Source: Coriobacteriia bacterium
Lineage (GTDB): Bacteria; Actinomycetota; Coriobacteriia; WRKU01; WQUG01
DNA length: 64,000 nt
NCBI GenBank assembly: GCA_009781115.1
Contig: WQYT01000001.1
Coordinates: 13,413 to 77,412 of the forward strand
Reading direction: 5' to 3'
This document shows positions 12,595 through 27,050 of the stretch, one piece after another. The notes beneath the pieces were generated by a model. That model made no database searches. It was not told where the DNA came from and saw only the letters and a program-made list of their open reading frames with translations. The translations under genes were made by a program, and so were the position numbers. Each line of letters opens with the position of its first letter. Position 1 is the first letter of the stretch.

Positions 12595-12684
12595 ACTCTA
12601 GAGTATAAAGCATCCACCCCTCATCACTGCGAGCACGGTAGTTCCTGCACATTGACGCTCATCATGACCGCACAAGGAAAATAA

Positions 12685-13440
12685 CTACACTGGGATTCTT
12701 TCACGTAATACGAAATTGATAATAATGAAACTCAAAATAACAAAGATAGCCGCAGCGATTACGAGAGCATGATAGGTAGGTCGATTGAGAGATATTGGTT
12801 TTTCTCTTTTCCTGTTAAAGATAACTATGCACAACGCAAACACGCAACCAAAGAAAAGTAGATAATGGGGCCAATAGGACACAATGGCCTCCTTAATAGT
12901 AAGAATCAGGCCTGAATAATTGAGGTCTTCAACAATTATATGAAACGACCAAGCAAAACGGCAAATGAAGGCGACAATGCTGCCTACCAAACAGCTCAAA
13001 GGATACGGTTTGCAAATAATGCTTGTTCCAAAAACAAACCCAATAGTAAAAACAGCAAGACCGCCTAATACATATGCAAACGTCGGAAATACAAAAACTG
13101 AACCGGGCAGCGTGGCAACTTGAAATAGGTCGAACGCAACATGAAGAAAAATCATGCAAAGAAAGGCAGCGGTACCAAAAACAGCAGGCAAAGCAAATCT
13201 CTCAAATACAGACGAAAGCTCCTTCTGCTGAATAGTATCGCAATCACCAGCATGCTCAATACTACCTGATTTCGAACTACCTTCTCTTTTACCTAACATT
13301 GGAAACCTCTCTAAAAACATATGCAGAAGCTTATTATAACGAAACATAGGAACTGAGTAACCATAAGCAGTCGCTTTAGCGAATTTCAGGTTGCCCTGAC
13401 CGTCATAAGTAGTGATGACATCATTAAATGAGACAGGCAT
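12685..13440 (-). CDS. Hypothetical polytopic membrane protein (AT-rich island gene)
   Basis: ~5 predicted TM helices; low GC; N-terminus contains TTYDGQGNL, resembling a YD-repeat fragment. Start 7 nt after the upstream gene stop. Confidence 0.5.
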   Translation of the reverse strand: MPVSFNDVITTYDGQGNLKFAKATAYGYSVPMFRYNKLLHMFLERFPMLGKREGSSKSGSIEHAGDCDTIQQKELSSVFERFALPAVFGTAAFLCMIFLHVAFDLFQVATLPGSVFVFPTFAYVLGGLAVFTIGFVFGTSIICKPYPLSCLVGSIVAFICRFAWSFHIIVEDLNYSGLILTIKEAIVSYWPHYLLFFGCVFALCIVIFNRKREKPISLNRPTYHALVIAAAIFVILSFIIINFVLRERIPV

Positions 13441-13447
13441 ATCTAAG

Positions 13448-14116
13448 TCACTTCTTGATATTGGCGTTCTTCACAAGCTGTGCCACCAGCGCATCTATAG
13501 CCGTTGAGCGAGCATCGTTAAGGTAGTCTGCCTTGATTTCATCTTTCAGTTCTTCAAAGCTCCCGGCTCCTGCATAGCGATCCTTATGCGAGTTATAGTA
13601 GGCTTGCAGCTTTGCGTCAGAAGCTGAAGAATCAGGAACAAGGGATTTGGTAAGCGCAGCTATCGTCAGGTTATCAGCAACAGCGGTCTTGAGTTGCGCC
13701 TCTGTCATTCCTGCCTGCTTGAGTTTATCCTGCAATTGAGCGTCAGTACCATAGCTTTTAGCCAGCGAGCTATACGCTGCATCAATAACTTTGCCAGAAA
13801 TTTTAATCCCCTGCTTCTTGGCTTCCTGCAATAAAAGCTGTTGGTTGATAGCAGCATTCAGATTACGCTGATCAACATCCTGCTTACTTGCCGCTCCTCC
13901 ATTAGCATCAAAGATATCGGGAGTCTGCGAAAGTGGGAAAGCAGTCTGCTGATCAATATCTGCCTGCGTAATAGCCACCCCATTGACCTGAGCTACTGTC
14001 TTTGTATGTTGGCGCAGAAGCAGATAGGCAGTAAGAGCGCCTGCAGCAAGAACGACTATCGCTATTGCAACAACAATCCATTTATTGCGTTTGTATGATA
14101 CCCGTTTCTTTTTCAT
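13448..14116 (-). CDS. Membrane-anchored SurA_N/PrsA-like (chaperone-like) protein
   Basis: Start at MKKKR (ATG 14116) preceded by GGGAGG RBS; single N-terminal TM helix; VNGVAITQADIDQQ resembles the SurA N-domain; low GC. Confidence 0.55.
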   Translation of the reverse strand: MKKKRVSYKRNKWIVVAIAIVVLAAGALTAYLLLRQHTKTVAQVNGVAITQADIDQQTAFPLSQTPDIFDANGGAASKQDVDQRNLNAAINQQLLLQEAKKQGIKISGKVIDAAYSSLAKSYGTDAQLQDKLKQAGMTEAQLKTAVADNLTIAALTKSLVPDSSASDAKLQAYYNSHKDRYAGAGSFEELKDEIKADYLNDARSTAIDALVAQLVKNANIKK

Positions 14117-14157
14117 GTGGTTGCCTCCCAATTATTATCATGCTTAACAGGTATTGA

Positions 14158-15015
14158 TTAAGGCCAGTCTTTTGGGTTTATTGAGGCAACTCTATCATCT
14201 GGTGTTTCGTAGATATCACCTACCACAAAATTCTGTCTTTCTTTTTTATACGCGATATCTACAATGCCGTCTCTTGTCACATGTGCAGAATAGCATCGAT
14301 ATTCTGGGGAAAACACCGCTATGCTTATATTTTGAACATAGTAATTTGGCGTTGCTGCGTCACAATCAAAAAAGTTGATCTTTGTTGCGGGGTCAACCCT
14401 TTCGACATCCACGAGGGTGGAGCTTCCTTTCACAAAAGTGTCAAAATCCCGAAAACGTAGTGTCTTTCCGACAAACATACAACCAGCCGCTTGGTATTCG
14501 CCAGAGCTTGCTTGAGTGTAAAATACAAAAAGACGCCCACCAGACAAGCTATCATGCGCGCTGTAAGCCCATGAGCCACTATACGGCCCATCACTTATAC
14601 TGAAAGGTCGTAATTGAGAGACAGATACAAAACTCCGCACGTCATTGAGCGTGACTTCATGACCCGCGGAATCAAACGCACCTTCGAATGTTATCTTCCG
14701 CATAAGACCGAGTATATTTGTTTTACTCTCCCGAGAGGCCAACAATGCCCGATTAGGATCTCTCGCAACAGTTGGTGTTGACACAGTAGATTCTATAGAT
14801 TCGCTTTTCTGTTTTTCATTTGACACCTGATTCTTCTCTGCCCTGTTGTCTTTGCCCGGGCCTCCACATCCAGATGAAAGTATCATCAACAGTAAAATAA
14901 TTATGGCTCCCGTTCTTGCAATTTTCACAATCACACCGCCACGATATCTCGTCTTACGGAACAACTCTTGCTCCAGTTCGCTTCCCGCACCATCAAACAT
15001 TTCACACCATCCCAT
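14158..15015 (-). CDS. Putative lipoprotein, candidate immunity protein for the upstream RHS toxin
   Basis: Signal peptide with lipobox LSSGC; low GC; begins 63 bp downstream of the RHS stop on the same strand. Exact start codon uncertain. Confidence 0.5.
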   Translation of the reverse strand: MGWCEMFDGAGSELEQELFRKTRYRGGVIVKIARTGAIIILLLMILSSGCGGPGKDNRAEKNQVSNEKQKSESIESTVSTPTVARDPNRALLASRESKTNILGLMRKITFEGAFDSAGHEVTLNDVRSFVSVSQLRPFSISDGPYSGSWAYSAHDSLSGGRLFVFYTQASSGEYQAAGCMFVGKTLRFRDFDTFVKGSSTLVDVERVDPATKINFFDCDAATPNYYVQNISIAVFSPEYRCYSAHVTRDGIVDIAYKKERQNFVVGDIYETPDDRVASINPKDWP

Positions 15016-15078
15016 CTGTCACGTTCGGCAAAGCGTATATTAACACCAATACTCTACAGCCTTTATCGAGAAAACGCA

Positions 15079-18000
15079 CTATTGCCGCTTAAATTTTATC
15101 GCTAAATAAAGCGTCTTGCTATTGTAAATTATTCCGCCATTGTTTCCATAATTCTTACCCCATACATCGGGATTCACGCTAAAATTATGATACTGAATTT
15201 CGGATATCGGACTTGAGATATGTCCATGTTTTTCTGACCAATAGCCATAGCCATGAGTATCTTGTTTCATAAAATGAAAATCAAACGAACATACTCTTAT
15301 TGCGATTCGATATTCGTTACTATATGTTGAAGCGTTTTTGCCTGAGATTGCTCTTGCTTTGCTACTACCTACTTGTTTGATGACTGTTTTTCGAAAATTT
15401 TCCACAGTAGATAAAGAATCATTAGGATATTTACAACCTGAATGGATATTCATAGCATATGAATAGCAATTAAAATTAGCGGTAGGCTCATTAATCCATC
15501 CCCATGTTTTTGGTCCAACAATCCCATCAACAATCAACCCATTCATCGATTGGAATTTCTTTACCGCAGCTAGCGTATTTGTCCCAAAAATACCATCCTC
15601 TGCCAAAGCCTTGCCGTTTGAACCCCGTACTGTAAAGGTATTCAATCTCCTCTGAAGCTTTTTTACAGTTGCTCCTTGACTACCATATCTCACCGTGGAA
15701 TCAAGCCCGCTCGGATCCGTACCGCCCACCGGCTCTCCCGCACAATACATATACGGGCTCTTCTCGCCGTCTGCTTTGACAGGATCGCGGCTGATGAAGC
15801 TTGCGGTGGTCGGGTCATAGTAGCGTTGGCTGCAATAGTACAAGCCAGCCTCAGCATCCCAAACATAGCCCGCATAACGCAGAGGTTGTGCTGCTGATAT
15901 CTGCTGAGCCAGATCAAGGGCAATAAGCGATGTTGCAAATTCTGTGTCGGAAGTAATGTTTCCAAAAGCGTCATAGTCGTAGCGAGCAAAGGTATCCCCA
16001 TTGGTGTCTCTAAGCTCGCGTACGTCTCCTCTGGCATCACTGACAATCTCGAAGTTTACTGGAGCTGTCGTCGCAGTCGTAGTAGTGCTGTAGCAAGCCC
16101 CAACGGGTGTTGAGCCTGATCCATACAGATAGATGATGCTTTGAGTCTCTGTAGAAGATTTTGCGGCTAGCGAGACAAGCTTGGTACCGTCATAGAGGTA
16201 GTTGGTAGTATTGTTTCCTGCCGTCTTTGAAAGCCTCTGGCCTTCTGCGTCATAGGCGCAGGTGAACTTCGCAGGCCCGGTACCGCCATAATATCCTGAA
16301 ACCAGTCTCTGACCAGACCAGCCATAGGTGACCCCATGGTCATCTGATATTCTTCTGCCAAGCCCGTCATAGTTAAAAGAAAACGCTGTCGATACTATAA
16401 AGCCACCGCTACTTGAAGTACGTCCGGCAAGCCTTCCTGCCGTATCATAAGAGTAACTTGTCGCGCCTGCTTGAGTAATATCTCCGGTTGTCGCATTGTA
16501 AGCATAAGCCGTTGTAGTACCGCTCACTTTTGCCGAGGCAAGCTGGGTTCTGTCTGCCGAGTAGGTATAGCTGGCAGACTGAGCACCTAAGCGGCTATAG
16601 CTTGAAGATGTCAACTTTGAGTCATTAGCATCATAAGTATATGTTTTTTGTCCTGGTGCAGAAAGATTAGTGTCGCCTGTCAGGTTACCCTGACTGTCAT
16701 AGCTAAGCTGAGAGCTTTGGGCGCCAACGCTTCTGGCAGTCGGTCTTCCACCCTCGTCATAGCTGGTGTTTGCAGCACTTAGACTTGAACCAAACTTAGG
16801 AGTAAGCGTATCAGAAGCAAGAAGCGCTCCGTTGACAATGCTTGTCTGTGTTGTGCCGTCAGCGTAAGTCTCAGTCTTAGTCGTTACCGTCTGCGCGTTG
16901 ATTCCTGCCCCTGTGTTTTGGTAGGTAAAAGCCTGCTTGTAACCAGATACTGACTCATCGATTACGCTGGGGCGCCCTGCGCTGTCAAAGGTAGTGGCGA
17001 TATCTTTGAGCACCACTGTGTCTTTCAGTTCCTTTTGCTCAGTTATTCTTGAAAGGCCATCGTAAGTATAGTCAACCTCTGTGCCATCGGGATTGACCTG
17101 CTTGGTTACCCTTGAAGCATTATCGTAGGTCGTAGTAGTAGGATCATCGGCTCCGACTTTCTCGGTAAGCTGGTTGCCCGCCCTATCATAACTGTAAGTA
17201 GTAGTAACGCTATCAAAGTCAGTTTTTGAGAGAATATCTCCGCGTACATTGTAGATATTGGTAGTAGCCGTCTGCGTTCCCATTTTTGTGGTAAGCAAGC
17301 GACCAGCTAAGTCATAGGTAGAGACAGTCGTTATATCAGGCTTGCCAGAGGCGCTTTGCTTATCGGAGATAACGTTGCCAACCAGATCGTAGTCGCAGGT
17401 ATCAGTCACGCCACCATTTGTTTGTGTTATAGCATTACCCGAAACATCATAGGTCGTGCTCTGATCAGGTTGCCCCGTGGTTTTAGTTGAGGTAACGTTT
17501 CCGGCTGCGTTATAGGTTGTTGTAGTTGGCGCGCTATACGGGGTAGTAGTCGTGCCAAGCACATTGCTGCTTTGTATCTCTTGACCAGATGCATCATATT
17601 TGGTCGTTGTAGTCACTCCGTCAAGAGTTCCTTCGGATTTGGCTTGAATAACGTTTCCTGCCAGGTCACAGGTCGTAACACTTGCGCCTTGCTCCGAATT
17701 TGAGTCTGAAACAGCTTCTCTCCCAAGAACGTCATGAGTCATGGTCGTGATCTCAACGGCTGTTCCCGCACTATCAAGACTTGAAGCAGTAAGAGTGTTT
17801 CCTTGTGCGTCGTAGGTAGTCTTTGTCCAATTTGATTTGACAGACGAACCAGAAGGTAGCTGGTAAGTTTCGGTCACATTACCCAAGTTGTCATAAACAT
17901 TGGTAGTAACAAGCCCGGTCTTATCTGTTGAGGTAAGCAGAGAGCCTGCAACGTCATAGGTCGAGGTATCGGTGATAATCCCGCGCCCATCAGTATTTGA

Positions 18001-21000
18001 GAGTCTGTTGCCACAGTCATCAATGGCGCAGCTCGTGGTGATATCTTGCGGCGTAGCGCTTGTTGCCAGCTGCACTGAATGCTCAATGGTTTTCTGGGAG
18101 TTCCCGTCACAAGCGAAGTCTGAGTAATCCTTGATATCGAAGATATAGGAACCATCAGCATTCTTAGAGAGGGCAGTCTTTTCCTGAGTAGTAAAGCCTT
18201 GGGTGTTGTAGCTGTATTCAGTGCGCTTGCGCGCCCCATTGGCAGCAATCAGCTTTTCTGTCACAAGTATGTTTCCTTTGCTGTCAACGTCATTCCAGGT
18301 CACAGCTCGGGCGTTATCGATCATCTTAATCAGGTCGTTTGCGCTGTTGTAGTAGTACCAGGTCTCAAGCCCTGCCTTGTCGAGAGCGTAAGTCTGATTT
18401 CCCCTGCTGTCATAATCTGACTTGGTGGCGCCTGCCACCCCTACTGAAGCGGGGCAATTAGTAAAGGTAAGCCCATCGGCAGATGCAGATACCGGGTCTT
18501 TAGTCACGATGACCTGGTTGTAGGCATTGTAACTGGTATTTGTTCCATAAAGCTGGTCGACCGAAGCAGACGCCCATATCTCCTGCCCTGTTGGATCAGT
18601 AAGAAATACCTGTCTTTCTTGCCCGGCAGCAAAGCCACCTTGAGCTGTGGCCGAGCCTTTGTCCAATACAGCCTGGCCCACATTGGTTGAGCGCTTGGAA
18701 TAGGTCATGGTAGCAGGAGCAGGCGGGGCGCCTGAAGTGGTATGAGCAAAGCTCACTGAAGCGGTACCGTAAGTGATCGTAGCGCTGTCTTGTCCCCTGC
18801 TGACAGAGGTGATGCGCCCGGAAGCATCTGAAGTAAAGGTGTCGGTGACTTCCCGTGGGCTGCCTTCATATTCAGTCACGGTCATATTGTTGCCACTGAT
18901 TGCATAGGTAAAGGTCTTTGAAGCAGATACGCCTTCTAAGGTGAGGGTATAGCTTGTTGCAGAGTCCTTTGCCAGCTCCAACTTCTGCCCATTGGCAGCC
19001 GTGATGATAGCTCCTCCCGATCCATAACTGTAGGTAGTTTTGTTGTTATTGCGATCACAATCTGAAGTGATCTTTCCGTCAGATCCAAAGAGATGCTGGG
19101 CTCCATCGGCATCCTTTAAAGTGAACCCTGAACTTGTTTTTGTCAGTGTCGAGAACATGCCGGCAGGTGAGAGGTAGGTATCCGTGTTCTTGGGGTCCTG
19201 AGCAAAGAGAATGACCGTTCCGGCGCCATCCGTATACTGTACAGCACCCGTAGAAAGCGTAGTCATATTCTGCTCAAAGCTAAAACGCCAGCCTTTAGGA
19301 AGATAGCTTGAGGTAGAAGCCATATCTGAGAGGTAGGTACGGCTTACTGCGGCAGCAGGACCATAGGTAGCGATCGTAAGGTCGTCAGAGATGATACGGG
19401 TAGCCGCTCTGCCCTCTGCGGCCTCAACAGATTGCCCTGCAACAGTTCCTAACTGCGTATAGCCCGGGTTGGGATTATCAGACACTCTGACGGTACGGTT
19501 ATCCAGCGTGGGCGATACCACACTCGCAGAATAGACGGCGGTCTCTCCATTGGCGTCATAGGCCGCTACCCTGAACCAGTAGTTGACGTTGTTTTGATAG
19601 GTGGTCGTCTTTGATTTGCGATAGATCGCATTAGGGTTATCACGCAGATCAAGTCCGGATCCTGCAAAGGTATCGACATTGGTTCCGCTTGAGAGGTTGC
19701 CGCCAATAAAGCGCTTGGAGGTTGCGTCATAGCTAAACGACACCATGCACTTGGTAGCCTGGTCTGACTGGAGCCATGAATCAGTAAGCAAGTGGCTGGA
19801 TAGCGAGACTTTGTAGGTACGCGCAAGGTTAGTGCTCGTCCATTCCATCAGATAGAGGTTATATCCATCGGAGGTCACGCTGTCAAAGCTTCCAAAGGCT
19901 GTGGTGTTTGCTACAGAGATACTCCAGTCCTTTTCGAAGTGCCCGGTATCGTTGTATTGACGCACGCTGAATCCCTGACCCACTTTGCCTACTGAATAGA
20001 TATGGGCGCCATCACTGGTAAGCATCACCCCATAGCCAGTAGTTCCTGCTGCGATATCAGTACCCGCACTATAGCTGAGCAAAGGTTTATCAAAAGTGAA
20101 GCTTAAGCGACGCGCTGTAGTACTTTCAAAGGTTGATTCCGCGTAGGCAGCGATAGTGGTAGCGTTTGCTGTTGATGCTGTGATGGCGCCGTCATAGAGG
20201 ACCCCGTTAAGTACAAAGGCGCCAAGAGACTGCGGAACGCTGTCTGTAGTGCCTAAGATAACGGGACTTCCATAGGCAGGTTTTGCGTTTGGATAGTTTG
20301 TCTGGGTAAAGCGTACCCATTTGGCAGGTCCTTTGTAGGCGCCCCAGGCTTTGACATAGATGTACTTGCCATCAGGCACAACAATTCCGGAACCTCCGGA
20401 ACCCCCGTTGGTTCCGGTGGTATAAGGGGTTCCTGCTGGATAGGTAAGCGTAGCAGATGAGACTCTGGTTGCAGGGCTGGGACTTTGGCCTGCTGTGTAG
20501 GGGTTACCGGCATAAGTTCCATCTGCCCCATAGCCAGCTACGGTAGTATCGGTGGGATATAAGCCTGCGCCAGACGTTGACCAGGTGATGTTATTGCGCC
20601 CGAGCGTAGTCCCTACCTGACGATAGCTTACCCCATCATAGGTATAGATATGATAACCCGTTGCGTGAGAGTCAGCGCTCCATGAGAGCTTGACCGACCC
20701 CCTGCCGGCATCAGGATAGTCGTTTTTGTTATCAGCAACGCCATCTTTGTTCTTGTCGGTCTCTTTGAAGTAGGCGCCACTGGCTGAAGTTGTAGCGGAC
20801 AGGTTCTTTACGGGCTGCACCAGAGAGGAGCAGGTGATCGTGATATAAGGGGCATTGCCGCCAGCCACAGAAGAAAAAGCATGCCAGTTATTAGTAAGCG
20901 GTGTTGCCTCGGACTCATAGAGCACCAGCCCATAGAAAGCTGTACCTGAGGTAAGCGGGCCGGTAAGCGTTGATGTGATGTCATAGGTGGCCCACAGGCT

Positions 21001-22308
21001 TGTTCCGGTAATAGATGTCGAAGCAATCGCCGAAGACATCGCTGGTTTGTTGTTCCAGTTTACGTTGGTAGGAATAGCAGCTGACGCCTGAGCAAGATAG
21101 CTTGTAGCAGCAGCCGTAGTGAAACAGCGGGTTTGATAAGCGCTGAAGGTGACTTTGCTGACTGAGACCCCCGCCAGATTAGGCAGAGCATCAAAGGTGA
21201 TATAGCTACGGTATTTATTGCCCGTTGAGGTAGTACAGCCAGCAAGAAGTTCTGTTTGATGAAGCGTGGTAGTGGGGCTCACCGAGTTGACGCAGGCATC
21301 TGCAGCCACCGCAACGGTAGCCGTTGGATCGATCTTTACCGGCCATGCACGGTCTTTTGAGCCGAGCCAGTCTTCATTAATAGTAGCCCGAAAACGAGCA
21401 GAAGCCGCAGAAGAAGACAGGAGCTCCCAGGAAGTGTTGGGACAGATGCTACTGCCCGCTTGTCCTGTGCCTGAATCTTCTACAACCAGATCAGACAGCA
21501 AATAAGCGACGCTGCCGTCTGCTTTGACTAACTCCCACGTACCTTTATCTTGCTTAAGACTCAGTCCTGAGAAATCAAGCCTGAAGTCATAGGTGTTTTT
21601 AGTAGTGGGGGTATTAAGGAGCAGGGTCTCTTTTACTCCGCCTGAAAGCGCTTGATATTGCAGGGTGGTGTTGCCTGTCGGGTCAAGGTAGACGGCAGTG
21701 TCACCCAACGTTAAAGGTGAAGAAAGTTGTTGTCCGCAATAGGTGAAGGAGACGCTATAGGGAGCAGATGACGTTGTGTCCGCCGATATAGTTGCCGCTC
21801 CTGTTCCTGAGGCAGAAAAGGATGTCTTATTTTCAGTGGAAAGGGTCGTAACAGCGCCAACCGGAGAATCAGAACCTGATGCAACTAAGTTCGTCGAAAT
21901 GTCTACAAACTGATTATGATCGCCTTTGTAATGAATATCTCCTGTGGAAGCTACTATCTGTCGCTGACCATCAGAAAGCTCATAGGTCTTAGTCGTAGCA
22001 GTACGCTCTTCGATGATCTCACGCACACGTTTAGCATGGGGATCCTTAACTTGAGGTTTTACAACAGCGGCAGGATCAGGAATAGCGTCAGCGGGAGCAG
22101 TATAGGTAGCTTCACCTGAGCCAAGAGGAGGGGTGGAAGCTTCCTGAGAAGGAACAGCAGTGCTCTCATGTGAAGCCGCCACAGCAGAAGCAGGAATGAG
22201 CGCCAGAAGGAGAACGGCAGAAAGGAAAAAACATAACAACCTGCGTAAAGGACTGGTAAAACAGCCCTCGTCAAATGTAGGCACCGACAACTGATTTGTT
22301 TTCTTCAT
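15079..22308 (-). CDS. Sec-secreted RHS/YD-repeat polymorphic toxin (2409 aa) with C-terminal peptidoglycan-binding domain plus Cys/His toxin-like domain
   Basis: N-terminal signal peptide; dozens of YD repeats (YDxxGN, YTYDGLSRI...); RHS core terminates PVGGTDPSGL (DPxGL). A 207-aa tail follows: PG_binding_1-like (LQRRLN...DGIFGTNTLAAVKKFQ...DGIVGPKTW) and a 137-aa Cys/His domain (NCYSYAM...HGYGYWSEKHGH). AAGGAAGG RBS. GC markedly lower than flanks, lowest in the tail. Confidence 0.9.
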   Translation of the reverse strand: MKKTNQLSVPTFDEGCFTSPLRRLLCFFLSAVLLLALIPASAVAASHESTAVPSQEASTPPLGSGEATYTAPADAIPDPAAVVKPQVKDPHAKRVREIIEERTATTKTYELSDGQRQIVASTGDIHYKGDHNQFVDISTNLVASGSDSPVGAVTTLSTENKTSFSASGTGAATISADTTSSAPYSVSFTYCGQQLSSPLTLGDTAVYLDPTGNTTLQYQALSGGVKETLLLNTPTTKNTYDFRLDFSGLSLKQDKGTWELVKADGSVAYLLSDLVVEDSGTGQAGSSICPNTSWELLSSSAASARFRATINEDWLGSKDRAWPVKIDPTATVAVAADACVNSVSPTTTLHQTELLAGCTTSTGNKYRSYITFDALPNLAGVSVSKVTFSAYQTRCFTTAAATSYLAQASAAIPTNVNWNNKPAMSSAIASTSITGTSLWATYDITSTLTGPLTSGTAFYGLVLYESEATPLTNNWHAFSSVAGGNAPYITITCSSLVQPVKNLSATTSASGAYFKETDKNKDGVADNKNDYPDAGRGSVKLSWSADSHATGYHIYTYDGVSYRQVGTTLGRNNITWSTSGAGLYPTDTTVAGYGADGTYAGNPYTAGQSPSPATRVSSATLTYPAGTPYTTGTNGGSGGSGIVVPDGKYIYVKAWGAYKGPAKWVRFTQTNYPNAKPAYGSPVILGTTDSVPQSLGAFVLNGVLYDGAITASTANATTIAAYAESTFESTTARRLSFTFDKPLLSYSAGTDIAAGTTGYGVMLTSDGAHIYSVGKVGQGFSVRQYNDTGHFEKDWSISVANTTAFGSFDSVTSDGYNLYLMEWTSTNLARTYKVSLSSHLLTDSWLQSDQATKCMVSFSYDATSKRFIGGNLSSGTNVDTFAGSGLDLRDNPNAIYRKSKTTTYQNNVNYWFRVAAYDANGETAVYSASVVSPTLDNRTVRVSDNPNPGYTQLGTVAGQSVEAAEGRAATRIISDDLTIATYGPAAAVSRTYLSDMASTSSYLPKGWRFSFEQNMTTLSTGAVQYTDGAGTVILFAQDPKNTDTYLSPAGMFSTLTKTSSGFTLKDADGAQHLFGSDGKITSDCDRNNNKTTYSYGSGGAIITAANGQKLELAKDSATSYTLTLEGVSASKTFTYAISGNNMTVTEYEGSPREVTDTFTSDASGRITSVSRGQDSATITYGTASVSFAHTTSGAPPAPATMTYSKRSTNVGQAVLDKGSATAQGGFAAGQERQVFLTDPTGQEIWASASVDQLYGTNTSYNAYNQVIVTKDPVSASADGLTFTNCPASVGVAGATKSDYDSRGNQTYALDKAGLETWYYYNSANDLIKMIDNARAVTWNDVDSKGNILVTEKLIAANGARKRTEYSYNTQGFTTQEKTALSKNADGSYIFDIKDYSDFACDGNSQKTIEHSVQLATSATPQDITTSCAIDDCGNRLSNTDGRGIITDTSTYDVAGSLLTSTDKTGLVTTNVYDNLGNVTETYQLPSGSSVKSNWTKTTYDAQGNTLTASSLDSAGTAVEITTMTHDVLGREAVSDSNSEQGASVTTCDLAGNVIQAKSEGTLDGVTTTTKYDASGQEIQSSNVLGTTTTPYSAPTTTTYNAAGNVTSTKTTGQPDQSTTYDVSGNAITQTNGGVTDTCDYDLVGNVISDKQSASGKPDITTVSTYDLAGRLLTTKMGTQTATTNIYNVRGDILSKTDFDSVTTTYSYDRAGNQLTEKVGADDPTTTTYDNASRVTKQVNPDGTEVDYTYDGLSRITEQKELKDTVVLKDIATTFDSAGRPSVIDESVSGYKQAFTYQNTGAGINAQTVTTKTETYADGTTQTSIVNGALLASDTLTPKFGSSLSAANTSYDEGGRPTARSVGAQSSQLSYDSQGNLTGDTNLSAPGQKTYTYDANDSKLTSSSYSRLGAQSASYTYSADRTQLASAKVSGTTTAYAYNATTGDITQAGATSYSYDTAGRLAGRTSSSGGFIVSTAFSFNYDGLGRRISDDHGVTYGWSGQRLVSGYYGGTGPAKFTCAYDAEGQRLSKTAGNNTTNYLYDGTKLVSLAAKSSTETQSIIYLYGSGSTPVGACYSTTTTATTAPVNFEIVSDARGDVRELRDTNGDTFARYDYDAFGNITSDTEFATSLIALDLAQQISAAQPLRYAGYVWDAEAGLYYCSQRYYDPTTASFISRDPVKADGEKSPYMYCAGEPVGGTDPSGLDSTVRYGSQGATVKKLQRRLNTFTVRGSNGKALAEDGIFGTNTLAAVKKFQSMNGLIVDGIVGPKTWGWINEPTANFNCYSYAMNIHSGCKYPNDSLSTVENFRKTVIKQVGSSKARAISGKNASTYSNEYRIAIRVCSFDFHFMKQDTHGYGYWSEKHGHISSPISEIQYHNFSVNPDVWGKNYGNNGGIIYNSKTLYLAIKFKRQ

Positions 22309-22377
22309 GAGCTATCCTTCCTTAGACGAACTCTTTTACACAGATATAGTAGTAAGAAAAGAGGTTATCTGAACAGT

Positions 22378-22423
22378 GTGAAATCACCTGATTTTCGGAA
22401 TTAGCAAATTCAGGTGATTTCAC
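22378..22423. promoter_or_regulatory. Perfect 14-bp inverted repeat with 18-bp spacer (GTGAAATCACCTGA-N18-TCAGGTGATTTCAC) upstream of the RHS gene
   Basis: Arms read directly at 22378-22391 and 22410-22423. Lies 70-115 bp upstream of the RHS ATG, just upstream of a TACTAT/TATATC -10-like region; adjacent LuxR regulator gene. Confidence 0.4.
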
Positions 22424-22479
22424 CTGTATCAAAAAAGGCTCCGCTGGTCGTATTTGGGAGAATTACATAAGCTGCTTGC

Positions 22480-23868
22480 TTAAAGTTCGCCGTTGCGGAA
22501 CTTATTAACCAGCATAATGCGATTTCTTGAACCTGTTTTTGATAAGAGCGAATTGACATGGTTTTGCACCGTGGTTGTCTTAACGCCCATTACTGCAGCG
22601 ATCTCCTCGGTGCCTTTACTGTTGGCAAGCAATTGCACGACCTCTAATTCTCGACCGGTAAACGAGGTTTTTGTTAAAACAGTTTGCTTATGTTCAGTAA
22701 CTTCCGGCTGATTCTTCTGCGGCAAAGCATCCAGGAAAATCAGAAGCACAAATACCAAAACCGCAAAAAGGATAATGGTTAACGGCAACAGAAACTCTGC
22801 CCGCCTGGCAAAGTCTGCCACTGAAAGCCCCAGCACATGCAAGTTTAAAAAGCCCTCACTGGAAAAATACACGAGCAAGCCCAAGCCTGCAATGAAGCCC
22901 TTATGCGAACGCCGCGCAGCCGCGATCATACAAAGAATATGGATAAGAAACACACAGCCTTTTACCCCAAGGTTGAGCAATAGATAAGCCATATTGTTTC
23001 CCGGAGAGTCCCCGTAAAGAAAAAGGGGCAGAAGGCAGCCCAACACCAGCAAAACAATCGGGATAGCCATGTTCAGTATACTGAATCGCTTATCTATCAA
23101 ATACCCTAAAAGAGCGCCAAAGGGAATGCGCAAAATGATAATGACCAAATAAAGGAACGGTATGCTTGCTGTCCCCCCTTGCTTTTCTAACGTTCCTGAA
23201 TTCATCACCTGTCCCAAAAGAACCAGGATGGTGAGCCCAACCAATAAAAGACCCAGACTACGCGAAGCCAAAACTCTCGATTCCAATGGATCTGGACTCC
23301 CTACGTCTTCGTTGCTTTTTGGCCAAAAATAAAACGCCGCAGATAAAAGCACCACCAAGATAAGAAACCCTATCGTAGTGATGGGTGTCTTTGGAAGAAG
23401 CGCCGATAAAAATTGGTAACCAAGTTTGAAGGGATATATCGCAAGAGAATAGAGGCTTGCAGAAATGCCGATTTTCAGCCCCCGGTTTCGCGCGTCGCCA
23501 CTTTCAAGGAAACTCACCAGCACCGCACAAACAAATAGTCCAATAATAATACCAAACCCGACAGATAGGACGATCAAAAACGACGTCCCTTGAAATGCAA
23601 GCATCCCGATACTGTATATCAGCAAAAGAATCGGCGCTAGGCCACGATAGGCGCGACAAAACTGTGGGTAGAAATGTTCAAGTAGCCCGTAAAGCAAAAT
23701 CCCCAGAGGAATCAGCTGTAGCGTAGCGTTTCCTGCAGCACTGAAACGCCCACTGGTTACATAAATAAGCTCGGCAGCGATGCCAATCGCTACCATCGAT
23801 AGACAGAGCGCTAAGAAGGGGTGATTCTTTTTACTTTTTAGCAAAAGGAGGGATTTATCGCTATCCAT
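22480..23868 (-). CDS. LuxR-family transcriptional regulator with ~10-12 TM N-terminal membrane domain
   Basis: C-terminal HTH (LEVVQLLANSKGTEEIAAVMGVKTTTVQNHVNSLLSKTG); long hydrophobic N-terminal region; AT-rich. Confidence 0.8.
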   Translation of the reverse strand: MDSDKSLLLLKSKKNHPFLALCLSMVAIGIAAELIYVTSGRFSAAGNATLQLIPLGILLYGLLEHFYPQFCRAYRGLAPILLLIYSIGMLAFQGTSFLIVLSVGFGIIIGLFVCAVLVSFLESGDARNRGLKIGISASLYSLAIYPFKLGYQFLSALLPKTPITTIGFLILVVLLSAAFYFWPKSNEDVGSPDPLESRVLASRSLGLLLVGLTILVLLGQVMNSGTLEKQGGTASIPFLYLVIIILRIPFGALLGYLIDKRFSILNMAIPIVLLVLGCLLPLFLYGDSPGNNMAYLLLNLGVKGCVFLIHILCMIAAARRSHKGFIAGLGLLVYFSSEGFLNLHVLGLSVADFARRAEFLLPLTIILFAVLVFVLLIFLDALPQKNQPEVTEHKQTVLTKTSFTGRELEVVQLLANSKGTEEIAAVMGVKTTTVQNHVNSLLSKTGSRNRIMLVNKFRNGEL

Positions 23869-24031
23869 CTTTCTCTCTCCGTTTCATCTATTTTAGAATT
23901 TTAATTTCAATATCGAGTTTTTTATTAAATCTTATTATAAAGCTTTACGTTCAGATAAAACAATTCAAATAGTCAACGGCTGGATTGCGGCGTCGCGCAT
24001 TGATGGGGATCTTTTGCCAGCCCAAACGAGC

Positions 24032-24056
24032 GACGCGCCGGGTCGTCGCGCCCTAC
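24032..24056. repeat. REP hairpin copy plus adjacent GCATTGATGNGGGTCTNTTGGCAG direct repeats (23996-24140)
   Basis: Direct read. Confidence 0.6.
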
Positions 24057-24182
24057 GCATTGATGCGGGTCTGTTGGCAGCCCCAAGCGCATACATTAAT
24101 GCGGGTCTCTTGGCGGGTCAGACGCGCGCATTGATGCAGAGCAGTTTCCCGTGCCAAAGCTAACATGAATTAATGTAGCTTA

Positions 24183-26762
24183 TTACCACTTTGTGCGGCG
24201 GTGGCGCTGGATGGCTTTTACGGCTTCGTACCAGAAGACTGAGAGGGCGGCAGCAGCGATTACCGCAAGCATTCGCGCTGGGCTCAGCGGCGCCAGCTGG
24301 AAGAGCCCGGCCAGCGGGGTGTAGAGTATGGCCGCAATGCCCACCAGCGTTGCGATGTTGACGATGCCAATCACACGGTCGCCGAACAAGTACCTGAAGT
24401 TCGCCGTAACCGGCGCGGTGTTAGAGCTGTTGACCTGCACCAAAAAGAGGTTGGCCAGAAACACCACGCAGAGCCCCATTGCGCGCGCTACCGGGGCGCT
24501 TGCTCCCGTTTTCAGGCTGTAGTAGTACAGCCCAAAGCTCGCCGCAAAAACACAGAGGCCTTGCAGCAGGCTCTTGACCAGCACCGCGCGTGACAGGATG
24601 CCCTCGCGCGGGTCGCGGGGGGGCCGCCGCATGACATCGCGCTCTGCCGGTTGGCGCTCAAAGACGATCGAGCAGGTCGGGTCGATGATGAGCTCCAGCA
24701 GCAGCACATGCGCGGGCAATAGCATGAGCTGCGCCGGGTTCAGATGCAGCAAGGGCGCAAGCAGCGCCGTCAGCATGATCGGGATGTGGATCGTGAAGAT
24801 GTAGCCGATGGCCTTGCGGATATTCTCGTAAATCCGGCGCCCGTCTTCGACGGTGGCCGTGATGGTCGCAAAGTTGTCATCAAGCAGAATCAGGTCGGCT
24901 GCCTCGCGCGAAACCTCAGAGCCCCGCTTGCCCATCGCAACGCCGATGTCGGCGTACTTAAGCGCGGGCGCGTCGTTGACGCCGTCACCGGTCATGGCGA
25001 CAATCGCGCCGTTAGCGCGAAACGCCTTAACGATGCTCATCTTATCTGCTGGCAACACGCGCGAGAAGATGTTGGTGGTCTGGACCCGCGTTTGCAGCTC
25101 GTCTGCGCTGAGCTGCGCCAAATCGGCGCCGGTGCAGACCTGATCGCTGTGCGCAATGCCGACACGGGCCGCAATGGCGCTGGCCGTAAGCCCGTTATCC
25201 CCGGTGATCATGACCACGCGGATCCCCGCCCGCTGGCACTGCGCGATATCTGCCGCCACGCCCTCGCGCGGCGGGTCGGCCAGGCCGATCAGGCCGGCAA
25301 GCGTCAGGCGGCAGTCTGCCAGCGACGCTGGCAGCGCCTCGCGCGAGGCCGGATGCGCGAAGCCCACGGCGATCACGCGCAGGCCCTGCTCGGAAAACGC
25401 GCGCAATTGTGCGGCGGCGGCATCGCGCTCTTCTGCCGTCAGGTCGCAGATCGCCAGAATCGACTCGGGCGAGCCCTTGGCCGCTACCGTCAGGCGGCCC
25501 TCGTGGACCCAGACATGGCCCATCATTTTGGCCTCATCAGTAAAGGCATATTCGCTGACAAAATCGCTGGTCGCCGATTCAAAGAGGTGCGCGGTTGTGA
25601 TGCCATGGTCCTCGCAGGCGCGCAGCATGGCTTGCTCCATCGGGTCGTAGGCTGACGTTTCGCAGGCCAGGCCCATCGTCTCATAGAGGCCTTCCGTGTC
25701 GCCTGCGGGGCTCCAGTCACGGGTGACCGTCATGCGGTTTTGTGTGATCGTGCCGGTCTTGTCCACGCACAGCACCGATATCGCGCCCAGCGTTTCAAGC
25801 GCGGGCAGGCGGCGAATCAGGGAGTGCTTTTTTGCCAGACGCCAGGCGCCCATCGAGAGAAATACCGCCAGCACGACCGGGAACTCCTCCGGGATCATGG
25901 CCATCGCCAACGTGATGCCGGCCAGGACGGAGTCGATCAGGCGGTTTTTGGGCAGCAGATCGCCCAGGTTAAAATACGTGATGACCACGGCCAGCGTGCA
26001 GAACACAACGGCAATGATGACGCAGACCTTGACGACTTTGGATATCTGCTTTTCGAGCGGCGTGGGGCGCTCGGGCGCCTCGGCGATGTGGACGCCGATC
26101 TTGCCGTACTCGGTCTGGGCGCCTATTGCGTCAACGAGGACCGTCGCCGAGCCCTGGGTAACCAGCGTCCCGGCGTAGCAGTAGTCGCGGCGCCAGTACT
26201 CTTCTGGTACGGGAGTGGTGGTGGTTGGGGCAGCGGCGTCAGTTGGGGGTGCGGGTGTCGCGTCCTCATCGGGCGCCGCGACGACCTTCCAGACGCCGAC
26301 CGACTCGCCCGTCAGGGAGGACTCATCAACGCACAGATCGCTTGCTTTAAGAATCGTCCCATCAGCGGGGATCTTGACGCCTTCGGTAATGATGAGCATA
26401 TCTCCCGGCACCAGGTCGGTACTGGGAATCTGGCATTGAGCCCCGTCGCGAATGACGGTCGCTGTTGGCGCGGACAAGCTCTTGAGCGCGTCCAGCGTCT
26501 GATCGGTCCGCCATTCCTGAAAGATCTCGATCCCAATGACGGCAACCACGAACACGAGCATGATTGACCCATCGCGCGGCTCGTTTAACAAGAAGTAGAC
26601 AAGGGCAGCTGCGATCAACAGGATGAACATTGGTTCACGCAGGATGCCCAGCGCCTTGAGCAGAAAGCTTTTCTTTTTCTCGGGACTCAGCTCGTTTTTG
26701 CCGAACTCCTTTTGGAGTTCGGCTGCCTGCTGCGAGGTAAGTCCTGTTGTGTTCATCTGCAT
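24183..26762 (-). CDS. Cation-transporting P-type ATPase (P2-type, Ca2+/Mg2+-like)
   Basis: DKTGTIT phosphorylation motif; TGDN/GDGVNDAPAL motifs; ~10 TM. Start chosen at ATG 26762 with GGAG RBS (track start 26777 is TTG). Confidence 0.9.
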   Translation of the reverse strand: MQMNTTGLTSQQAAELQKEFGKNELSPEKKKSFLLKALGILREPMFILLIAAALVYFLLNEPRDGSIMLVFVVAVIGIEIFQEWRTDQTLDALKSLSAPTATVIRDGAQCQIPSTDLVPGDMLIITEGVKIPADGTILKASDLCVDESSLTGESVGVWKVVAAPDEDATPAPPTDAAAPTTTTPVPEEYWRRDYCYAGTLVTQGSATVLVDAIGAQTEYGKIGVHIAEAPERPTPLEKQISKVVKVCVIIAVVFCTLAVVITYFNLGDLLPKNRLIDSVLAGITLAMAMIPEEFPVVLAVFLSMGAWRLAKKHSLIRRLPALETLGAISVLCVDKTGTITQNRMTVTRDWSPAGDTEGLYETMGLACETSAYDPMEQAMLRACEDHGITTAHLFESATSDFVSEYAFTDEAKMMGHVWVHEGRLTVAAKGSPESILAICDLTAEERDAAAAQLRAFSEQGLRVIAVGFAHPASREALPASLADCRLTLAGLIGLADPPREGVAADIAQCQRAGIRVVMITGDNGLTASAIAARVGIAHSDQVCTGADLAQLSADELQTRVQTTNIFSRVLPADKMSIVKAFRANGAIVAMTGDGVNDAPALKYADIGVAMGKRGSEVSREAADLILLDDNFATITATVEDGRRIYENIRKAIGYIFTIHIPIMLTALLAPLLHLNPAQLMLLPAHVLLLELIIDPTCSIVFERQPAERDVMRRPPRDPREGILSRAVLVKSLLQGLCVFAASFGLYYYSLKTGASAPVARAMGLCVVFLANLFLVQVNSSNTAPVTANFRYLFGDRVIGIVNIATLVGIAAILYTPLAGLFQLAPLSPARMLAVIAAAALSVFWYEAVKAIQRHRRTKW

Positions 26763-26778
26763 TGCCACTCCTACCAAA

Positions 26779-27050
26779 GGCGCGCCGGGTCGTCGCGCCC
26801 TACATGGTCGTTGCCAAGACCGAGTCGGTTGCCCAGTGCCGACGGCCCATGGTCGTTGCCAGGACCGAATCGGTTGCCCTACCAGAAGCGCGCCGGGTCG
26901 TCGCGCCCTACATGGTCGTTGCCAAGACCGAATCGGTTGCCCAGTGCCGACGGCCCATGGTCGTTGCCAGGACCGAGTCGGTTGCCCAGTGCCGACGGCC
27001 CATGGTCGTTGCCAGGACCGGGTCGGTTGCCCAGTGCCGACGGCTTTGCC
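26779..27050. repeat. Tandem array (~5.3 copies of a 45-bp unit ATGGTCGTTGCCARGACCGARTCGGTTGCCCAGTGCCGACGGCCC) with two embedded REP hairpins
   Basis: Units begin at 26804, 26849, 26912, 26957 and 27002. REP GCGCGCCGGGTCGTCGCGCCCTAC at 26779-26803 and 26888-26912. Overlapping ORF-track peptides (GRCQDRVGCP repeats) come from these DNA repeats. Confidence 0.75.

Follow-up and report, generated by a model that had tools for sequence, protein, structure and literature searches.

A 64,000-nucleotide stretch of the genome of a Coriobacteriia bacterium (contig WQYT01000001.1, positions 13,413 to 77,412; hereafter the window) encodes a 2409-amino-acid WapA-class RHS polymorphic toxin (15079..22308, minus strand, as for all gene and domain coordinates of the window given below). 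The last 207 residues of this protein form a swapped C-terminal module, and a gene for a lipoprotein follows directly downstream. On balance, we favor reading this locus as a Sec-exported WapA-class RHS toxin cassette in which a wall-binding papain-like hydrolase is paired with a lipoprotein antidote, and which probably attacks the cell envelope of a competitor from outside. RHS polymorphic toxins are a main weapon in bacterial competition, the payloads of those found in Gram-positive gut bacteria are mostly uncharacterized, and it is an open problem in the field by what means a ~250-kDa protein gets its toxin past a thick wall. Should our reading be correct, the Sec-exported RHS cocoons of monoderm bacteria could deliver payloads that kill from outside the membrane, brought to murein by a peptidoglycan-binding domain in the released fragment and with no translocation step. 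The new elements of the locus are the toxin family, the lipoprotein immunity family, the peptidoglycan-binding domain within the released fragment and the occurrence in Coriobacteriia. Papain-like payloads of RHS proteins, effectors that act on the envelope and WapA toxins dependent on Sec have each been described before, and no current concept is overturned.

The RHS repeat-associated core of the protein (residues 2112-2202, 15703..15975) matches NCBIfam TIGR03696 over the full model (positions 1-76 of 76, E 2e-20), and the DPSGL at its end is therefore the canonical end of the core. The motif PVGGTDPSGL ends at Leu2202, leaving a tail of residues 2203-2409 (15082-15702), that is, exactly the 207 amino acids that an earlier annotation made from the sequence alone (hereafter the first-pass annotation) had placed beyond the motif; its upper limit of 15717 takes in the DPSGL codons too. 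That annotation had also described the tail as a swapped module and as the most AT-rich part of the gene. With the last 573 residues as the query against 185,579 species-representative genomes, 80 RHS loci were returned. Homology of the core at these loci is 26-35% identity, and nearly all matches end at query residue 365-369, the DPSGL boundary being residue 366; in a few exceptions the match extends into a PG_binding domain or a linker. In P0001, the nearest relative of the tail, identity is 54% over the peptidoglycan-binding and toxin domains, as against 39% over the adjacent 429 core residues. The G+C content (GC) falls stepwise from 0.503 in the core to 0.433 in the peptidoglycan-binding part and 0.341 in the Cys/His domain (0.27 at third codon positions), in a genome of ~62% GC and with 0.60-0.63 in the flanking chromosome. 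The tail is thus a variable, swapped AT-rich module outside the conserved core, as had been claimed on both counts, and the toxin and immunity cassette is mobile, having been grafted onto a more divergent RHS core.

The gene was assigned from its open reading frame (ORF; stop codon 15079-15081), its translation and Pfam and NCBIfam searches, together with the Pfam annotation on a public contig (L089). In order, the protein comprises a signal peptide, a DNRLRE/CBM96 domain, DUF6531, a YD-repeat shell, the Rhs core and the C-terminal toxin cassette. The predicted signal peptide (residues 1-47, 22168..22308, ...ASAVA|AS) was read by inspection of the translation: the N-terminus ...RRLLCFFLSAVLLLALIPASAVA|AS has an n-region, an h-region and an AxA site of the Sec type, as the first-pass annotation had it, which suggests Sec export of the RHS protein. 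Export by the Tat route was considered and rejected, as the RR is not set in a Tat consensus and the protein to be carried is very large. The DNRLRE/CBM96 carbohydrate-binding domain (residues 336-492, 20833..21303) matches NCBIfam NF033679 at E 1.2e-17, with PF24517 found on the same gene in L089. DUF6531 (residues 960-1035, 19204..19431; PF20148, E 7e-5) marks where the RHS shell starts; at 23.5 bits it falls just under the cut-off of 24.1. The YD/RHS repeats of the shell match PF05593 in five stretches (E 3e-13) and TIGR01643 (E 6e-14), and TEN_YD-shell is annotated on the same gene in L089. Among the Pfam and NCBIfam matches of the 2409-residue protein there is no PAAR, VgrG, WXG or LXG, that is, no domain targeting it to a type VI or type VII secretion system (T6SS, T7SS). 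The layout agrees with that of WapA in Gram-positive bacteria, where a Sec signal, DNRLRE, DUF6531, Rhs and a C-terminal toxin follow one another (PMC12704120). Every testable defining feature of the RHS/WapA class is present.

The tail begins with a peptidoglycan-binding domain, PG_binding_1 (residues 2211-2271, 15496..15678; PF01471, E 1.1e-15, 58 bits), located right after the boundary, where the first-pass annotation had expected it. The domain scores 54-58 bits against a Pfam cut-off of 23, the match covers positions 1-56 of the 57 in the model, and the region also matches the N-terminal part of SleB (NCBIfam). Two further RHS tails, P0001 and P0002, combine PG_binding_1 with the toxin domain; in a crude regular-expression census of carrier types, such fusions make up 3 of 84 clusters.

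The rest of the tail is a Cys/His domain (residues 2273-2409, 15082..15492), the putative toxin, with a candidate triad formed by Cys2281 (15466-15468), His2345 (15274-15276) and Glu2359 (15232-15234). The last 137-139 residues have no Pfam match above the cut-off (the best, NinG at E 0.027, lies under it), no NCBIfam match and no match among PDB sequences, which bears out the earlier remark that the family has no name. A word-indexed homologue search with the 139-residue tail recovered nothing. The only route that recovered relatives was an exhaustive HMMER search of 1.84 billion representatives, which gave 41 matches: 37 genuine relatives and four artefacts (P0003, P0012, P0016 and P0024), rejected as long repeat proteins with several matches each, all of them to short parts of the query. 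The domain is carried by other RHS C-termini, often as short orphan cassettes, and by short standalone ORFs; in the secreted proteins P0018, P0031 and L149, a ricin-type lectin or CBM96 lies directly upstream of it.

In a 31-sequence alignment of the family, Cys2281, His2345, Trp2357, Lys2360 and Tyr2395 are invariant, Asn2280 and Asp2343 are each kept in 30 sequences, and the position of Glu2359 is occupied by E, H, N or D in 29, which are the residues commonly seen third in papain-type triads. The motif order is NC ... R ... E ... DxH ... Q ... W-x-[EH]-K ... Y, and the window copy has kept its catalytic residues. PHROGs and NCBIfam searches with all 31 relatives gave nothing meaningful, and the PDB sequence search returned nothing with the single sequence and only a spurious YscO (E 0.06) with the profile. 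Pfam Tox-PL/Gln_amidase families are absent among the matches of the window domain and of the 31 relatives; we take the models for Tox-PL1 (Gln_amidase), Tox-PL-2 and Tox-PLDMTX to be PF15644, PF15643 and PF15645. DUF7689 (PF24738) matches 17 of the 31 members weakly, mostly at 19-21 bits, and reaches 37.6 bits in P0022 (cut-off 22.6). The window copy gives no match to it even at E <= 1 and was not assigned to DUF7689 at the 22.6-bit threshold. It aligns to P0022 at E 9.5e-5, and we regard it as a probable distant relative of DUF7689, through transitive homology only. A literature search for DUF7689 found no paper mentioning the family. Judged by its conserved sequence pattern, the domain belongs to a real but uncharacterized family.

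The toxin-family hidden Markov model (HMM) also matches, at E 1e-13 to 1e-15, ORFs of ~199 amino acids with an NCYSY motif on a set of IMG/VR contigs, one of them labeled GVMAG (L178-L191). These contigs resemble giant-virus genomes, with RING-finger and capsid-like neighbors, and the scaffold is therefore not limited to bacterial conflict systems.

An AlphaFold2 model built from the 31-sequence alignment has a predicted local distance difference test score (pLDDT) of 82 and a predicted TM-score (pTM) of 0.80. In the model, a helix (11-15) begins at the Cys, the His lies on a strand (74-79) and Glu2359 is on the neighboring strand (87-89). A Foldseek search of the model against the PDB gave no match at E < 0.001. 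Structural neighbors of the model include wall hydrolases (the pseudomurein endoisopeptidase PeiR, the CHAP domain of PcsB, the T6SS amidases Tae3 and Tse1, and CHAP endolysins) as well as other enzymes (AvrPphB, staphopain, transglutaminases, Josephins and C39 peptidases). The model makes a papain-like thiol hydrolase a likely assignment: the fold appears sound, while its placement inside clan CA, and hence the substrate, does not.

Downstream of the RHS gene lies the putative cognate immunity gene (14158..15015), a 285-amino-acid ORF with the lipobox ILSSGC (Cys50) and a conserved C-terminal domain of ~170 amino acids; the public annotation (FWD65_00140, 100% identical) starts five codons later and gives 280 amino acids. 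The lipoprotein gene starts 63 bp past the RHS stop codon, with no terminator-like site in between. Its product is 42% identical (E 5e-61) to that of the gene directly 3' of P0001, and the genes directly 3' of four more distant toxin homologues are recognizably related to it. A homologous gene follows the toxin at L004, L001, L086, L094/95 and L093, and the contexts number six independent ones in all; the toxin of L093 (P0018) is lectin-fused and not an RHS protein, yet has an adjoining gene of the lipoprotein family. A profile search collected 67 members of this family, 53 of them with a lipobox pattern in the first 45 residues. A locus scan with a tighter toxin sub-alignment (A4) sampled mainly one human-gut clade, so that no global rate of adjacency can be derived from it. 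Toxins of that clade are followed by a different protein of ~110 amino acids, likewise N-terminally membrane-anchored.

Since the downstream family is kept with the toxin in six contexts and most of its members have a lipobox, we consider it a predicted cognate, exported immunity protein, and it is very likely, on this conservation of gene order and sequence, that the two genes form a toxin/immunity cassette. Because an immunity protein of this kind would be exported and tethered to the membrane as a lipoprotein, the toxin most likely acts outside the membrane, and there is good reason to expect an extracytoplasmic site of action.

Other loci add detail on the two families. In the human-gut clade (L099-L128, for example L106:3482-4757), a hydrophobic helix with a lipobox-like Cys stands straight after the RHS boundary, as it does in P0020, P0014, P0022 and P0023. 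L091:6708-9935 holds a 644-amino-acid orphan immunity homologue (45% identity over the conserved domain) directly after a BlaI-like repressor and a BlaR1-like (Peptidase_M56) sensor, with no toxin gene nearby. L005:6001-7176 is a truncated RHS tail, P0002 (PG_binding_1 and toxin domain), with Asp2343 changed to Gly and no immunity gene; the Peripla_BP_4 gene next to it is the neighbor found after the immunity gene in L004, and the cassette in L005 may be decaying. Finally, an IMG/VR contig of GC 0.33 (L176:5046-6165) has a toxin-like ORF that is truncated at its N-terminus and has no NC motif; after it comes a 210-amino-acid lipoprotein (immunity HMM, E 1e-8). This pair sits amid genes for serine recombinases, suggesting that it is carried by a mobile element.

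These elements can be combined into the following mechanism. The YD-repeat shell would enclose the last 207 residues, which would be freed after DPSGL (Leu2202) by autoproteolysis of the RHS core, a release presumed from what is known of the family. PG_binding_1 would then tether the released fragment of ~23 kDa to murein, and the 137-residue domain, as a predicted papain-like cysteine hydrolase with Cys2281, His2345 and Glu2359 as its predicted catalytic residues, would work on the outer face of the membrane, hydrolyzing an envelope substrate in a thiol-dependent reaction. The likeliest substrates would be peptide or amide bonds of peptidoglycan, as for CHAP, NlpC/P60 and Tae amidases and endopeptidases, and the wall of the neighbor would be weakened without any membrane crossing. 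The producer would be shielded by the lipoprotein on the external face of its own membrane, which through a BLIP/BamE-like domain is expected to hold and inhibit the enzyme. Peptidoglycan is put forward as the most likely substrate because all fusion partners of the family bind glycans, several structural neighbors are wall hydrolases and the site of action appears to be extracytoplasmic; even so, we consider its identification to be evenly poised. Only tentatively, and with slightly less confidence than this, would we describe the two genes as representatives of an undescribed family pair, an envelope-acting thiol hydrolase toxin with a BLIP/BamE-like lipoprotein immunity, spread across Clostridia and Coriobacteriia of the gut on carriers that can replace one another (RHS shells, lectin/CBM96 fusions and orphan cassettes).

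Several observations weigh against this explanation. The structural scores do not set amidases apart from proteases or transglutaminases, and the third catalytic position might be taken by Glu2359 or by Asp2343, which is nearly invariant. Neither CHAP (PF05257) nor NlpC_P60 (PF00877) matches the window domain or any of the 31 relatives at E <= 1. Membership in either family was consequently rejected for want of an HMM match, and of the papain-fold, CHAP/NlpC-P60-like hydrolase proposed in the first-pass annotation, the papain-like fold stands, on structure prediction and family conservation, while the closer affiliation does not. Distant relatives occur on giant-virus-like contigs, whose hosts have no murein. 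The peptidoglycan-binding domain does not in itself imply the peptidoglycan-targeting enzymatic payload that the first-pass annotation had envisaged: an orphan RHS tail of Paenibacillus sp. NPDC058071 (L048:6265-7768) consists of a DPxG boundary, PG_binding_1, a TreTu_C ADP-ribosyltransferase and a 95-amino-acid immunity ORF without a leader. PG_binding_1 here occupies the same post-boundary place before a cytoplasmic toxin, which indicates that it can be a generic adhesion module and a reusable accessory of Gram-positive RHS tails; PGB1 and LysM were read as adhesion modules by Zhang et al. 2012 (PMC3482391) as well.

An alternative is the same envelope-acting toxin with a target other than peptidoglycan, namely surface or membrane-anchored proteins or lipoproteins, or with transglutaminase or deamidase activity, PG_binding_1 serving for wall retention only. 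We regard this as rather doubtful, given that every fusion partner of the family is glycan-binding (PG_binding_1, ricin lectin, CBM96), that wall hydrolases are among the closest structural neighbors, several in number, and that there is no particular protein to put forward as the target.

Most characterized RHS and WapA tails work in the cytoplasm, and the domain might likewise enter the target cell across its membrane, as WapA tails with tRNase activity do, and there modify a protein in the manner of a Tox-PL1-type deamidase or protease. The NC...H signature recalls that of Tox-PL1 (NC-H-DxQ; Zhang 2012), and the hydrophobic helix after the boundary in some relatives could serve translocation. 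A toxin of this kind should, however, be paired with an immunity protein in the cytoplasm, like the one of the TreTu cassette, whereas the cognate immunity proteins are lipoproteins (lipobox in 53 of 67) and the alternative of the gut clade is also membrane-anchored; with no Pfam Tox-PL or Gln_amidase match in addition, we find cytoplasmic action improbable. It is more improbable still that the domain is no weapon at all and is instead a processing or releasing peptidase, as internal papain-like domains of polymorphic toxins can be (Zhang 2012), a housekeeping autolysin under an inhibitor lipoprotein or an inactive remnant, for although there are standalone copies with no neighboring immunity gene (L087) and the orphan tail in L005 lacks one, the domain sits at the extreme C-terminus past the RHS boundary, forms orphan-cassette arrays downstream of RHS genes (L001, L086, L094), is tightly linked to a dedicated downstream gene and has its catalytic residues intact in the window copy.

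The envelope-acting hydrolase cassette that we favor has parallels in several known systems. With the WapA toxins (B. subtilis WapA; S. suis WapA-CT1..15) it has in common the Sec signal, DNRLRE, DUF6531, the YD shell, a core ending in DPxGL, a variable tail and a downstream immunity gene; a DNRLRE domain has been reported for S. suis WapA (PMC12704120). It differs from them in its host, a metagenome-assembled genome of Coriobacteriia (Actinomycetota), in its payload and immunity families, and in having the peptidoglycan-binding domain inside the released tail and not as an N-terminal anchor. Two tails of S. suis WapA, CT3 and CT7, show toxicity solely on delivery to the periplasm (PMC12704120), and envelope-acting WapA payloads therefore have precedent. 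For this reason the word 'unusual', applied earlier to the predicted arrangement, is too strong: Sec-exported WapA proteins are an established Gram-positive class, and tails whose toxicity is confined to the periplasm are on record for it (PMC12704120). Compared with the S. suis wapA loci, the island around the window gene has no LysM, SecF-like or SrtB genes and has instead a SurA_N-like chaperone and an unassigned membrane protein. By analogy with the SecF-like and SrtB genes of those loci, the latter two might be export helpers.

As with the lipobox protein of the window, immunity to envelope-acting toxins is exported, there to the periplasm, in the case of the T6SS peptidoglycan amidase effectors (Tse1/Tae1-Tsi1 and Tae3-Tai3), and the reasoning from an exported antidote to a site of action outside the membrane is shared with the Tae/Tai pairs. 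Papain-like polymorphic toxin domains (Tox-PL1, Tox-PL-2, Tox-PL3, Tox-PLC39 and Tox-NlpC/P60; PMC3482391) are, as predicted here, C-terminal papain-fold thiol peptidases on RHS carriers. Tox-PL1 has the NC nucleophile motif in common with the window family, and the rest of the motif order differs (NC-H-DxQ). Membership of Tox-PL1 or Tox-PL-2 was rejected, there being no HMM match and a motif order unlike NC-H-DxQ or C-NxxH-DN, and in the signature described for Tox-PL3 (C, [DE]H, [DE], R), [DE]H stands where the window family has D-x-H; the taxa reported differ too. The survey of Zhang et al. 2012 gives no immunity family for most papain-like toxins, and lipoprotein immunity is exceptional in it, with Imm65 only (PMC3482391).

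With lysostaphin and zoocin A, the window protein shares the concept of a secreted killer of competitors in which a catalytic domain is coupled to a wall-targeting one. Lysostaphin, an M23 metallopeptidase, has an SH3b domain, and immunity to it is by modification of the cell wall; the window enzyme, by contrast, is a predicted thiol hydrolase enclosed by an RHS shell, and its predicted immunity is a protein, the lipoprotein. The earlier label 'lysostaphin-like' accordingly holds as a functional analogy and for nothing beyond it. The lectin-fused, non-RHS relative P0018 in L093, with its adjacent immunity gene, is the best fit to the bacteriolysin picture. A similar case is TelC-TipC, in which an LXG toxin of the type VIIb system (T7SSb) acts extracellularly on Gram-positive bacteria and is blocked by a membrane-anchored, surface-exposed immunity protein. 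TelC is a lipid II phosphatase exported by T7SS, so that the export route, the enzyme and the folds differ, and the logic of an outside-acting toxin with an anchored immunity protein is the same. If our reading holds, the locus would offer a simple testable case, a wall-compartment payload with its own murein-binding domain and a lipoprotein antidote, and would add a cysteine-hydrolase family and a proteinaceous inhibitor family to the potential cell-wall-active enzymes.

The host is a gut member of the Coriobacteriia and a monoderm actinobacterium. In its chromosome, the cassette lies in an island of 11.5 kb (12600-24180) with a GC of 0.47, as against 0.60-0.63 in the flanks, situated between tilS-hpt-ftsH and a P-type ATPase gene. 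Beyond the immunity gene, the island encodes a membrane-anchored SurA_N-like chaperone (13448..14131; Pfam SurA_N_3, E 1.8e-15; GC 0.469), possibly a helper in export or folding, and a 251-amino-acid polytopic membrane protein (12685..13440; an ORF with no Pfam family; GC 0.398). Upstream of the RHS gene is a gene for a membrane protein with a C-terminal LuxR/GerE helix-turn-helix (22480..23868; PF00196 GerE on the same gene in L089; GC 0.459), which is possibly a regulator. A tandem repeat array with 45-nt and 108-nt periods (96% matches) is located at 26770-27044, near the start of the P-type ATPase gene (24183-26777).

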